From the NCBI GenBank assembly GCA_021498095.1, contig JAIZWK010000001.1, positions 1,170,001 through 1,202,000 on the forward strand: a stretch of 32,000 nt of DNA. The letters run 5' to 3'. This DNA is from Candidatus Harpocratesius repetitus (GTDB taxonomy: Archaea > Asgardarchaeota > Lokiarchaeia > Sigyniarchaeales > Promethearchaeaceae). Both the position numbers and the translations under genes were made by a program. Below, in pieces: positions 27,073-30,167 of the stretch. Each line of letters begins with the position of its first letter. Positions within the stretch are counted from its first letter, which is position 1. The notes beneath the pieces are model-generated. The model was given only the letters and a program-made list of their open reading frames with translations, made no database searches and was not told where the DNA came from.

Positions 27073-27819
27073 TTGAATATTATTATGGGATTAATTTTGA
27101 AATTCCGTTCAAATCAACAAGATCAATGGAATATCTTCTATCGGCATATTTTTGATGTTTTTCGGGAAGGAAAGATGATTGCTTTTCCATGGGGGAAAGC
27201 GGGATATGGTTTAGCTGGAGACCCAAGTAATCCAAGTATTTTACAGATATATTGGGATTTATATGGCGAAAATTTCGTTGAAAATGTAATATTTATCGGA
27301 GATTCAATCAAAACCTTGTCTCAATGGGGATTATTAAGCGATCTTGCCATTAAAGTTGCTGAATTATATTGGCCAGGGGATCTCGTGATACATGTCCCCT
27401 TTATCCATTTAGAAGAAAATCCTTTGCAAGAACAAATTTTCTCTGCCAATCCAGAATTAGAAACAAGTCTTTTACAGCGATCGGTCTATCTTTTAGTTCC
27501 ACGGCATCCTGTTGCTCAAAATTTCTTTTCTTATCTAATTGATCATGGATATCCTCCTCTATTAATGGGAAATTTTGCCGCTATTTCATCCAATTTCAAT
27601 GCGCAAGATGCGGTTACTGTGATGAATGAATTCGGTAATGAGTACTTAGGAGTTGTTGCTGATGCAGGTCGTTTGCAGAAAAGTAAAAAAGTGTATCCTG
27701 CCACTCAAGTGGCGATATTCGATGAAGATTTCCTCCAAATTGAGATAGAAGGGTTGATTTCTGAAGCAAATATATTTGATTCCTTTCCTAATTTAAATTT
27801 GGAAAAAGATGAATTCTAA
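27073..27819 (+). CDS. YrdC/Sua5-fold protein with degenerate active site (alternative start ATG 27085)
   Basis: Scaffold motifs are recognisable in order (GKMIAFP...YGL, YWPGDL, PRHPVA, VVADAG) but canonical catalytic residues are substituted. Confidence 0.75.
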   Translation: MNIIMGLILKFRSNQQDQWNIFYRHIFDVFREGKMIAFPWGKAGYGLAGDPSNPSILQIYWDLYGENFVENVIFIGDSIKTLSQWGLLSDLAIKVAELYWPGDLVIHVPFIHLEENPLQEQIFSANPELETSLLQRSVYLLVPRHPVAQNFFSYLIDHGYPPLLMGNFAAISSNFNAQDAVTVMNEFGNEYLGVVADAGRLQKSKKVYPATQVAIFDEDFLQIEIEGLISEANIFDSFPNLNLEKDEF

Positions 27820-27825
27820 TTTGAG

Positions 27826-28413
27826 ATGAACAGAATAATGCAAAAATTCAATTTATTAGTTTCAACTGCTCGTGAATTTGAGGAACAAGCCAAAACCGAA
27901 CTATGGTTCAATTTAATGTCGCTTGGCGATCCCAATCCAATTATTTACAAATCCAATTTTCAAGGTCTAATTTTAGGATATACAAATCTTCCCCCTCGAC
28001 GTTTAATTTATTATCTGCGTGATGTGATTACTTCTAAGGATGTGAATTATATTCAATTCATTCAAAAAATTTATCCAATCGACCTTGTTACGGCAACAGA
28101 ATTACCCGTAATTAAAGAAGCGGTCTTAGAATTAATCGCAGAATCTCAAATTTGTCATGTTCCAACATCAAAATTTCGTATTACCGTTAGAAAACGTAAT
28201 TCGCCTTTACGACCTGAAGATATTATTAATTCTATCGCACCTCTTATTTCTAATCCAGTTGATTTGAAAAATTTTGATTGGAACTTGCAATTTGAGATCC
28301 TAGGCAAACAAACTGGTATTGCAATACTCTCAAAGGACGACATCTTCAAGCCAATCAGTGAGCGAAGAGATCTTTTATATGTAAATGATAGTACATGGAT
28401 GGATGAAATGTAA
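27826..28413 (+). CDS. Stand-alone THUMP domain protein (Tan1/THUMPD1-like)
   Basis: FNLLVSTAREFE, IQKIYPID, KFRITVRKR, VDLKNFDWNLQFEILG. Confidence 0.88.
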   Translation: MNRIMQKFNLLVSTAREFEEQAKTELWFNLMSLGDPNPIIYKSNFQGLILGYTNLPPRRLIYYLRDVITSKDVNYIQFIQKIYPIDLVTATELPVIKEAVLELIAESQICHVPTSKFRITVRKRNSPLRPEDIINSIAPLISNPVDLKNFDWNLQFEILGKQTGIAILSKDDIFKPISERRDLLYVNDSTWMDEM

Positions 28414-28531
28414 GCTGCGATTTTTTAACTATTTGTTTGCTTTTTTTTCTGAATTCGAGGATACTAAATTAAACTTCAATTAAAATCAAATTTATTCTTG
28501 TTTTTCTAAATTATTATTTTTAAAGAATGAG

Positions 28532-28655
28532 TGGCCCCGCACAGAAGCGGATCAAACTGATCCGTAAAAGTAGATACCTCCGAAGGAGGTGAAATCAAGT
28601 CCGACCTTTAAAGCCGGACATCCAAAAAGACAAAATAAATTCCGTGCGGCAGCCA
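28532..28655 (-). ncRNA. Candidate structured non-coding RNA of unknown class (strand tentative)
   Basis: 124-nt island of about 48% GC (hand count 60/124) in very AT-rich DNA. Ends 28532-28546 and 28640-28655 pair, enclosing three hairpins (28547-28565, 28576-28590, 28599-28619). Four internal mismatches are G-U pairs on the minus strand. Confidence 0.6.
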
Positions 28656-28919
28656 TATTTGTGTTTTATTTTTTCAATTCTTTATTTTGGCGACTTGCAT
28701 TCAATAAAGTGACTCAAGTCTAAATAGTTTAAAGTAATTTCATCTAATAAAATTTTGGCGAAAGAAGAATTAGTTCTAGAGTATCATAAATTTTTCCTTT
28801 AAATAAAAATGCAGAAAAATTCAAATAAAATATAGGTAAATTAAATTTATATTTACGGAACAACAGCACTATATGTTAATAATTTGATTGAATTTGTATA
28901 AAGAAGAGATGTAAGAATA

Positions 28920-30167
28920 ATGGAAAAAAGAAATAATAATAATCGATTGCGTGTTGGGATTCTCACTGGTGGTGGAGATTGTCCTGGTTTAAATGCAGTG
29001 ATTTACGGTGCTTTACTCCGTGCATCTGAGGAATCTTCAAAGCAAGTTGAAGTAGTAGGAATTATTAAGGGCTGGAAAGTGTTTAATTTTCCAAAATCAG
29101 AATTGACTAAAGAATTAGTTGATCATTATACTCAAGTGCTTGATATTGGAGAATTGGATGATCTTCACACCAAAGGTGGCACAATGTTGTATACATCGCG
29201 CACAAATCCTTTTAAAGCAGTTGCAAAGCTTAAAGATCCCCAAGAAAGGGAACAATTAACAAAAAAAATCGGGGAAGATTTAGCTTCCAAATTCCAAGAT
29301 TTGAATATAGATGCGTTAATTGCAGTTGGTGGTGATGATACTTGTGGAGTGGCTGCAGCAATGTATAAATATGGTGGTGCGCATATTGTGGCTTGTCCTA
29401 AAACAATTGATAATGATTTAGCAGGGACTGATTTTACTTTTGGTTTTTTCAGCGGAGCCCAATTAGCGAGTAATACTTTAGATAACCTTACTACTACAGC
29501 GCATTCTCATCAGAGAATTTTTGTGGTAGAAGTAATGGGTCGCGATGCAGGTTGGTTAACATTATATTCCGGCCTTTCAAGTGGGGCTGATATTATTCTA
29601 TTACCCGAAGTTCCTTTTGATTTTGAACATGATGTTGTAGATGTATTGAAGAAACGGGCGAACGCAGGTTATAAATTTCATATTATTGCATGTTCAGAGG
29701 GAGCCTATCCTAATCCTGAATCATTAGAGCGAGATTTTACCACGATAAGTCAAAAAGATATTGAAGCATTACCAAAAGATAGTTTTGGAAATCCTATTTT
29801 ATCAAAATTGAATATGGCTAGCAAAATTGAAAAAGAATTGCAGAAACGCGAAGATATTAAACAGTATTTTAATGAAAGACATGCACATTATGAAATTCGA
29901 TCTGTAGTTTTAGGACATACAATGAGATCTGGCACTCCAAATGTATATGATCGCGTTTTAGGTTTACGCTATGGGTATCACGCTATGGATTACGTAATCC
30001 AGGGCCAATTTGGAAAGATGACTTCGTTACAAGGGACTGAAATAGAACCGGTAGATATTGTAGAAGGATCTAAGAAACGTTTGATTCCTCTTGATTCAGA
30101 TTTGTTGAAAATTAAAGAAGCTATGATTTCGGTGAAACACAAAAGCAAAGAAAAATTGTTCAAGTAA
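28920..30167 (+). CDS. pfp: PfkA-family 6-phosphofructokinase, predicted pyrophosphate-dependent
   Basis: TGGGDCPGLN, GGTMLYTSR, GGDDT, PKTIDND, EVMGRDAGW, LGHTMRSG. Confidence 0.9.
   Translation: MEKRNNNNRLRVGILTGGGDCPGLNAVIYGALLRASEESSKQVEVVGIIKGWKVFNFPKSELTKELVDHYTQVLDIGELDDLHTKGGTMLYTSRTNPFKAVAKLKDPQEREQLTKKIGEDLASKFQDLNIDALIAVGGDDTCGVAAAMYKYGGAHIVACPKTIDNDLAGTDFTFGFFSGAQLASNTLDNLTTTAHSHQRIFVVEVMGRDAGWLTLYSGLSSGADIILLPEVPFDFEHDVVDVLKKRANAGYKFHIIACSEGAYPNPESLERDFTTISQKDIEALPKDSFGNPILSKLNMASKIEKELQKREDIKQYFNERHAHYEIRSVVLGHTMRSGTPNVYDRVLGLRYGYHAMDYVIQGQFGKMTSLQGTEIEPVDIVEGSKKRLIPLDSDLLKIKEAMISVKHKSKEKLFK

Follow-up and report, generated by a model that had tools for sequence, protein, structure and literature searches.

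A predicted structured small RNA with a conserved U-rich four-way junction in one family of Lokiarchaeia

In RNAs bound by Sm proteins, the Sm consensus is a single-stranded PuAU(4-6)GPu element flanked by helices (the U7 site reads AAUUUGUCUAG and the consensus AAUUUUUGGAG), and a composition of nearly pure U is typical of protein sites such as those of Sm/Lsm, La and similar proteins. An invariant block shared by all members is the pattern of the bacterial Qrr1-5 and OmrA/B RNAs, and riboswitch aptamers and small ribozymes typically combine, at multi-helix junctions, conserved joining strands with helices that covary freely. In box C/D sRNAs, box C (RUGAUGA) and box D (CUGA) form a K-turn beside the terminal stem, and H/ACA sRNAs have an ACA three nucleotides from the 3′ end, a pseudouridylation pocket and a K-turn or K-loop. 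Eukaryotes have no closer known relatives than the Asgard archaea, yet to our knowledge almost nothing is known about the non-coding RNAs of this group. We have analysed a stretch of 32,000 nucleotides (hereafter the window) from the Lokiarchaeia archaeon Candidatus Harpocratesius repetitus, for which an initial annotation had proposed an unannotated four-way-junction RNA between a THUMP gene and pfp. Covariation in homologues bears this proposal out. As far as can be judged from sequence, 28533-28654 on the minus strand is a gene for a stable structured small RNA of ~122 nt with a four-way junction.

The RNA is read from the minus strand of the window, with its 5′ end at 28654 and its 3′ end at 28533 (122 nt; first letters GGCUGCCGCACGGAA, last letters UUCUGUGCGGGGCC). 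The limits given previously, 28532-28655, do enclose the element but are one flanking base too wide at each end, since the true limits from helix to helix are 28533-28654. The gene and its flanks contain the following features, in window coordinates.

28533-28654, minus strand: predicted structured small RNA gene, 122 nt, four-way junction (fold, covariance model, covariation and G-U asymmetry)
28640-28654, minus strand: 5′ strand of P1, RNA positions 1-15, with a bulged G at RNA position 5 (fold and covariation)
28619-28638, minus strand: J1/2, U-rich invariant strand UUAUUUUGUCUUUUUGGAUG, RNA positions 17-36, the last G closing P2 (conservation)
28599-28619, minus strand: P2 hairpin GUCCGGCUU/AGGUCGGAC, RNA positions 36-56 (fold and covariation)
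28591-28598, minus strand: J2/3, conserved strand UUGAUUUC, RNA positions 57-64 (conservation)
28576-28590, minus strand: P3 hairpin ACCUCC-UUC-GGAGGU, RNA positions 65-79 (fold and covariation)
28565-28575, minus strand: J3/4, strand AUCUACUUUUA, RNA positions 80-90, with conserved YUUUUA at its 3′ end (conservation)
28548-28564, minus strand: P4 hairpin CGGAUCA-GUU-UGAUCCG, RNA positions 91-107 (fold and covariation)
28533-28546, minus strand: 3′ strand of P1, RNA positions 109-122, with CC at its end (fold and covariation)
28681-28688, minus strand: TATA-like A/T box AAAATAAA, −34 to −27 from the first G (position; putative promoter)
28522-28532, minus strand: 3′ flank ACUCAUUCUUU, pyrimidine/U-rich tract (likely terminator)

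The minimum free energy of the element is −53.3 kcal/mol, compared with −31.0 ± 3.3 kcal/mol for its dinucleotide shuffles (ViennaRNA, z −6.76; 0 of 200 shuffles as good), and its complement, the plus strand, folds worse (−41.4 kcal/mol, z −6.5). The minimum free energy fold is made up of the terminal helix P1, the hairpins P2, P3 and P4, and a weak GUCU/GGAU mini-stem. P1 has 14 bp with one bulged G, and its 5′ strand starts with GG in almost all copies. The terminal helix of about 14 bp with one bulge and the three hairpins listed in the initial annotation are all recovered in this fold, and the window copy has exactly the four G-U pairs that had been counted. The mini-stem corresponds to a candidate mini-hairpin within J1/2 (GUCU-UUUU-GGAU), which is predicted by the fold and whose sequence never varies. 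The G+C content is 0.49 over the element and reaches 0.42 in 120-nt profile windows, compared with 0.2-0.3 in the flanks.

In BLAST searches against relatives, homologues over the full length of the element came from the same genus, with identities of 86% and 75%, and from two further genera, a single genome often having several. A first covariance model (R1) was built from an alignment of five sequences (A2) whose structure was set by hand; 16 full-length matches were realigned (A4), and the model was rebuilt from A4 (R2). The covariance-model score of the window copy is 123-138 bits. In A4, which was fitted to a covariance model and so favours the structure somewhat, standard pairs occupy 96.3% of the cells, as against 71% in shuffled alignments and 39-43% when the partners are slid by 1-3 columns; 28 of the 34 pairs change on both sides among the 16 homologues, as against 18.3 in shuffles, and the covariation score is 0.742, as against 0.243 (0 of 500 shuffles reach the observed values). 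Pairs that change on both sides are found in all four helices (P1, 12 of 13; P2, 7 of 8; P3, 6 of 6; P4, 3 of 7). In P4, the pairs without covariation (about 3-4) are invariant, and in P2 all the cells of A4 (100%) pair. The compensatory changes that the initial annotation had named as a check are thus seen in 16-26 homologues, and the size of the effect together with the slid controls leaves no doubt about the predicted structure, despite the model-fitted alignment. The family also tolerates variation around this structure: the P2 loop accommodates a 20-nt insertion in the second copy of the source genome, P3 is variable in length with large insertions in three paralogues, and two subfamilies have the P1 bulge at position 5, whereas a third has it at position 10.

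It is also evident which strand is the functional one. Among the paired cells of the family alignment, 44 G-U and 4 A-C combinations are counted on the window minus strand, and the counts are reversed on the opposite strand, which identifies the minus strand as the functional strand. The flanking signals agree with the minus-strand reading as it was originally put forward. Of the 24 copies inspected, most have a box of A and T only at ~−34 to −25 relative to the first G (AAAATAAA in the window copy), and ATTTTTATA is conserved at −33 to −25 in the GGCAAUUU subfamily; archaeal TATA boxes sit at about this upstream position. A U-rich or pyrimidine tract directly follows the 3′ end of every copy, with 5-9 T in the first 12 nucleotides. 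Position and conservation make the A/T box a likely promoter and the U-rich tract a likely terminator. Transcription would start at a G that is preceded by T or A, i.e., with a purine, and both ends of the RNA are predictions, the 5′ end at the first G and the 3′ end within the U-tract. The oligo(T) stretch at 28656-28690, past the plus-strand end of the element, had been held against the minus-strand reading. The stretch is real, but on the minus strand it is the A/T-rich putative promoter region and does not count as evidence against that strand.

The element is located in a 506-bp gap between a gene for a 195-aa THUMP-domain protein (27826-28413, plus strand), with which the RNA gene is convergent, and a PFK-family gene (28920-30167, plus strand), from which it is divergent. 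This is the position between THUMP and pfp that had been described, and the two orientations indicate that the RNA gene is not a leader. The stand-alone THUMP gene is preceded at a distance of 6 nt by a gene weakly assigned to the YrdC/Sua5 family (27073-27819, plus strand; Pfam 28.6 bits, just above the cut-off); THUMP is conserved across the order, and its YrdC-like partner is found in at least the genera g1 and g5. In several genomes, the strand opposite the RNA gene carries spurious open reading frames of 44-114 aa (28589-28723, plus strand, in the window, with equivalents at loci L045, L047 and L050). If gene-calling programs reported these frames as hypothetical proteins, the RNA gene would be hidden.

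No model in Rfam 15 (4227 models) matches at its gathering score anywhere in the window, the region around the element (28350-28950) gives only noise (E 1.9-9.5), and ten paralogous loci searched with E up to 5 give nothing on the RNA position. ARAGORN finds no tRNA in the window. With both programs negative, the earlier statement that the element matches no known RNA family holds. The Rfam tRNA model misses the element and finds a genuine tRNA beside one paralogue, and the junctions of a tRNA cloverleaf, with its 7-bp acceptor, anticodon loop and T-loop, are far shorter than the strands of 20, 8 and 11 nt in the element. Likewise, RF00001, the model of the 5S rRNA with its three-way junction, has no match to the element and recovers three 5S genes elsewhere in the source genome. 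The closest approaches to a box C/D RNA on inspection of the alignment are GGAUG before P2 and CUUGAUU after P2, the latter a D-like box with an extra U. A K-turn built from them was rejected because U faces U, which leaves no canonical stem beyond the G.A pairs, and there is no conserved CUGA near the 3′ end. An H/ACA assignment was rejected as well, as none of the helices is followed by a conserved ACA and the sequence beyond the 3′ end is variable and rich in U. Inspection for a K-turn, a tetraloop receptor or a T-loop found none. A literature search returned no description of this Lokiarchaeia RNA. The RNA family is therefore new relative to Rfam 15 and the searchable literature. As a family of structured small RNAs that stand alone and are probably components of RNPs, it is of a known kind; its conservation pattern and its lineage are new.

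The rRNA genes of the source genome have an unusual layout. One 16S and one 23S gene are unlinked and ~77 kb apart (724577-726072 and 802841-805945), and in a second pair (2300729-2305614) the 23S gene is directly upstream of the 16S gene on the same strand. The three 5S genes (1399892-1400758) are arranged in tandem with a period of ~375 nt, apart from both rRNA sets.

The RNA family comprises ~26 good copies, spread over five genera that all belong to one Promethearchaeaceae-like family of Lokiarchaeia. R2 matches are found in 10 of the 13 genomes of family f1 (genera g1, g4, g5, g6 and g7) and in none of the 137 genomes from the remaining three families in the order (f2-f4). In other Asgard families, represented by ~125 genomes of a 151-genome sample of the phylum, there is no convincing match and one marginal match (E 0.08); apart from the latter, the RNA was not found across about 270 Asgard genomes outside f1. 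An exact-motif scan of 185,579 species genomes recovered true members only in Promethearchaeum, Lokiarchaeum and related sources, i.e., Promethearchaeum syntrophicum MK-D1, other Promethearchaeum metagenome-assembled genomes (MAGs), Ca. Lokiarchaeum ossiferum B35, a “Promethearchaeota archaeon” MAG and a few archaeal MAGs. Viral contigs gave three pattern matches, none of which is a family member, and a metagenome scan with a loose three-block pattern gave one true member (L192) in 80 loci among the matches listed. Weak model matches of 15-23 bits in six genomes (G003, G004, G009, G014, G022 and G243) were not accepted as family members. The one in G004, which partly resembles UUUUGGAUG-hairpin-CUUGAUU, is a chance match in coding sequence, with even conservation of its flanks and a codon-like pattern in G009 and G003.

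The copy number ranges from one to five per genome. In P. syntrophicum MK-D1 (NZ_CP042905.2), copies are located at 4255038-4255164 (minus strand), 2676512-2676636 (minus strand), 1734428-1734562 (plus strand) and 1882150-1882270 (plus strand), and in Ca. L. ossiferum (CP104013.1) at 2878173-2878296, 3151873-3151992 and 2498076-2498198 (all minus strand). BLAST within the source genome, a check that had been suggested at the outset, gives one full match and not many dispersed copies, and the covariance model adds one divergent copy, i.e., two in 4.36 Mb. This second copy (C1:1595228-1595364, plus strand, equivalent to L059:1501-1637) scores 58.6 bits and has the same four-way fold (z −5.5); a TniQ-like ORF fragment is located ~1 kb upstream of it. 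The window copy is the orthologue of copies that lie between THUMP and PFK genes in seven genomes of three genera. The other paralogues sit among unrelated genes (Rad51, a P-loop protein, a TPP enzyme and unknowns), and no recurrent neighbour of different paralogues was found in the neighbourhoods examined. A tRNA gene in MAG G008 (L052:1775-1847, minus strand) is convergent to an RNA copy, ~150 nt from the 3′ end of the RNA. In Ca. Lokiarchaeum ossiferum, a degenerate partial copy (L062:1412-1494, minus strand, 21.5 bits) directly follows a full copy (L062:1501-1623). This partial copy was left over from a tandem duplication and illustrates the way in which the family expands. In the Promethearchaeum MAG G012, the 5′ strand of P1 in one copy (L064:1501-1620, minus strand, also L044) has been replaced by unrelated sequence, so that there is no terminal helix, and P4 has mismatches; this copy is probably a decaying paralogue.

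The strands that join the helices are far more conserved than the helices. J1/2 (UUAUUUUGUCUUUUUGGAUG) shows at least 95% identity in each column among 26 copies from five genera. It contains the AUUUUG that was noted at the outset as well as a second such run, UUUUUGG, and the linker that had been singled out is in fact the most conserved part of the molecule. In J2/3, (C)UUGAUUU, the core UGAUU is present in all good copies, and YUUUUA is conserved at the 3′ end of J3/4. Conserved sequence in the helices is found in the closing G-C pair of P2 and, in P4, in the two basal pairs (C-G and G-C) and the apical CA..UUG. Between the window copy and the other genera, the junction columns are 83-95% identical and the paired columns 38-74% identical; by comparison, the neighbouring THUMP proteins are 50-55% identical. 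The alignments show that selection keeps the predicted helices as helices only, their sequences turning over, and keeps the junction strands letter for letter. A frozen U-rich junction among freely evolving helices is an unusual conservation pattern. A tiny open reading frame, from the AUG of GGAUG to the UGA of UUGAUU, is in frame over 6-8 codons in many copies, but on reading the copies its peptide is unconserved and its frame is lost in G002, and we rejected it.

These results could be explained by an RNA that serves as a protein-bound RNP scaffold, with the U-rich junction as the binding platform for one or more proteins; this is the explanation we prefer, tentatively, at a little below an even chance. 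The U-rich junction would be the working part of the molecule, and the helices would act as a scaffold that presents the junction and protects both ends. The junction would form a composite platform on which one or more proteins assemble into a small stable RNP. The presence of three separate conserved strands, together with the conserved helix-closing pairs and the P4 apex, points to a composite surface rather than a linear seed, and the nearly pure U composition of the junction, for which no complementary partner was found, favours an RNP. A U-binding Sm-like ring is the most obvious candidate binder, and any sequence-specific RNA-binding protein would fit too. G, C and A are invariant at some positions as well, and a homomeric Sm ring alone would leave these unexplained. 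Other points that count against a protein-bound scaffold are that no gene recurs beside different paralogues, that a contiguous invariant stretch shared by paralogues is equally a mark of base-pairing sibling sRNAs, and that the U-rich strands could instead form a tertiary core of their own.

The initial annotation had drawn attention to Sm-like proteins as a speculative link, and the source genome has three LSM-domain genes (C1:930209-930403, 1310123-1310341 and 3783077-3783277) and one weak match. Relatives that lack the RNA have 3-4 LSM paralogues too, and there is no signal of co-distribution. AUUUUG and UUUUUGG are invariant and are predicted to be mostly unpaired between P1 and P2; compared with the Sm consensus, J1/2 is missing the flanking purines. 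Binding of an Sm-like protein is compatible with the sequence. A more specific proposal, which we regard as rather unlikely, is that J1/2 represents tandem Sm-type sites (AUUUUGU and CUUUUUGG) and that the RNA is the core of an Sm-ring RNP in Lokiarchaeia. If so, it would be an independently evolved archaeal counterpart of the eukaryotic Sm-class snRNPs and the first RNA with a defined, sequence-specific Sm site from any Asgard archaeon, and its three other conserved elements would recruit further factors or RNA partners. The confinement of the RNA to part of one Lokiarchaeia family indicates that it was invented recently within this lineage. It is thus no forerunner of eukaryotic RNAs and cannot be the ancestor of the eukaryotic snRNAs.

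Alternatively, the RNA could act in trans by base pairing, in the manner of bacterial sibling sRNAs, with the invariant J1/2 and perhaps J2/3 and J3/4 as seeds for A/G-rich mRNA sites, in which case many targets would freeze the seed and an Sm-like protein could be the chaperone. Genomes with several paralogous genes, all of them equipped with a likely promoter and a U-rich tract at the 3′ end, are what would be expected of such RNAs, as is one invariant, contiguous and predicted largely unpaired block of 18-20 nt common to paralogues that otherwise drift. However, the 4.36-Mb source genome contains no site complementary to the block with up to two mismatches, except in the genes of this RNA and in one A/T-rich intergenic look-alike, and complementary 10-14-mers are not enriched over reversed-word controls (Watson-Crick pairs, source genome). 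Duplexes rich in U:A pairs would be weak, and a seed would not need conserved helix-closing pairs or a conserved P4 apex. We therefore consider base pairing in trans unlikely, albeit with an appreciable probability. A guide role on rRNA was rejected, as shuffled seeds form stronger duplexes with 16S and 23S rRNA than the three junction strands do. Sites that nearly match the invariant block itself, at 1774671, 1475187, 3541241, 3551421 and 3046421, were also discarded, none of them having the family fold. The same conserved strands, presented by freely covarying helices in a multi-helix junction, could instead make up a self-contained tertiary core that binds a ligand or metal, or catalyses in trans, as a sensor or ribozyme would. 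However, there is no Rfam ribozyme or riboswitch match even with E up to 5-10, and U makes up almost all of the conserved strands, with few A, G or C, which sets them apart from known catalytic or ligand-binding cores. Furthermore, the covariation screen of the alignment found no extra covarying (tertiary) pairs, and a cis-regulatory role is at odds with a gene that stands alone, ends in a U-rich tract and has a convergent gene downstream. Such a core is, in our judgement, improbable.

The remaining readings place the function on the other strand or deny it. On the plus strand, the element lies 120 nt past the THUMP stop codon, this strand folds as well (z −6.5), and the order THUMP-RNA-PFK is found in seven genomes of three genera, so that the plus strand could provide the YrdC-like/THUMP operon with a terminator or a structured 3′ UTR, or could form an RNP with the THUMP protein. 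This is largely refuted and very improbable. The count of G-U over A-C (44 to 4) favours the minus strand, and the A/T box and U-tract fit that strand. THUMP proteins are encoded across the whole order, and 57 of the 62 genomes of f3, a family without the RNA, have one; most paralogues of the RNA have no THUMP neighbour. In three genomes from which the RNA is missing (G004, G009 and G037), the next gene abuts THUMP with no intergenic gap, and in G001 and G005 the RNA and THUMP are on different contigs. A functional link with THUMP/YrdC was accordingly rejected, and the THUMP adjacency is inherited gene order, not a demonstrated functional link. A dispersed DNA repeat or MITE, which the initial annotation had listed as an alternative, or a functionless cluster of chance hairpins would account for the several copies in some genomes, the degenerate tandem remnant in L. 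ossiferum and the TniQ-like fragment ~1 kb from the second source copy. However, the two copies in the source genome are mutually divergent, neither terminal inverted repeats nor target duplications were observed, synteny of the orthologue extends over three genera and viral contigs contain no members. Moreover, the massive compensatory covariation and the strand asymmetry indicate selection on an RNA, and we regard the repeat as refuted, with a negligible chance left to it. The rest of the probability goes to something else.

Returning to the protein-bound scaffold, an RNP of this kind, especially one bound by Sm-like proteins, would provide a handle on RNA-protein machinery in the lineage for which biology of the snRNP type is most disputed. 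Since the RNA occurs in both of the model organisms in culture, P. syntrophicum MK-D1 and Ca. L. ossiferum, bench tests are possible now, and RNA-seq of P. syntrophicum MK-D1 exists (PMC7015854). The covariance model is ready for annotating these genomes.

When compared with described RNAs, the element shares features with several and differs from each of them. Like the Y RNAs and the nematode stem-bulge RNAs, it is ~100-130 nt long, with a long bulged terminal helix, a large pyrimidine-rich interior, a U-tract at the 3′ end and several paralogues. In Y RNAs, however, the conserved part is the Ro-binding bulged stem and the loop varies, whereas here the stem varies (12 of the 13 P1 pairs change on both sides, so that the bulged terminal helix is not conserved in sequence) and the loop is invariant. 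Neither does the Rfam Y_RNA model match the element, and the TROVE/Ro domain (PF05731), which was matched in control genomes, has no match in the source genome (93.6% complete, one contig). With the Hgc RNAs it shares an intergenic position and a local peak of G+C in an A+T-rich archaeal genome, but it matches neither HgcC/E/F/G nor any other Rfam family and has no C/D or H/ACA boxes. The bacterial sibling sRNAs are also lineage-restricted paralogous genes with a likely promoter and terminator and a shared invariant single-stranded block; the RNA described here differs from them in its archaeal host, its far more elaborate conserved four-helix fold and its three conserved strands, and in that no targets were found. 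The comparison with Sm-class snRNAs is likewise two-sided. The element has no significant similarity to snRNA models (SmY, at 12.9 bits and E 3.6, is noise), and its candidate site lies within a four-way junction and lacks the flanking purines. Yet it resembles these RNAs in its length of ~120 nt, its several paralogues and its invariant single-stranded U-rich block between helices; AUUUUG and UUUUUGG resemble the U7 site and the Sm consensus, and Sm-like proteins are encoded in the source genome.
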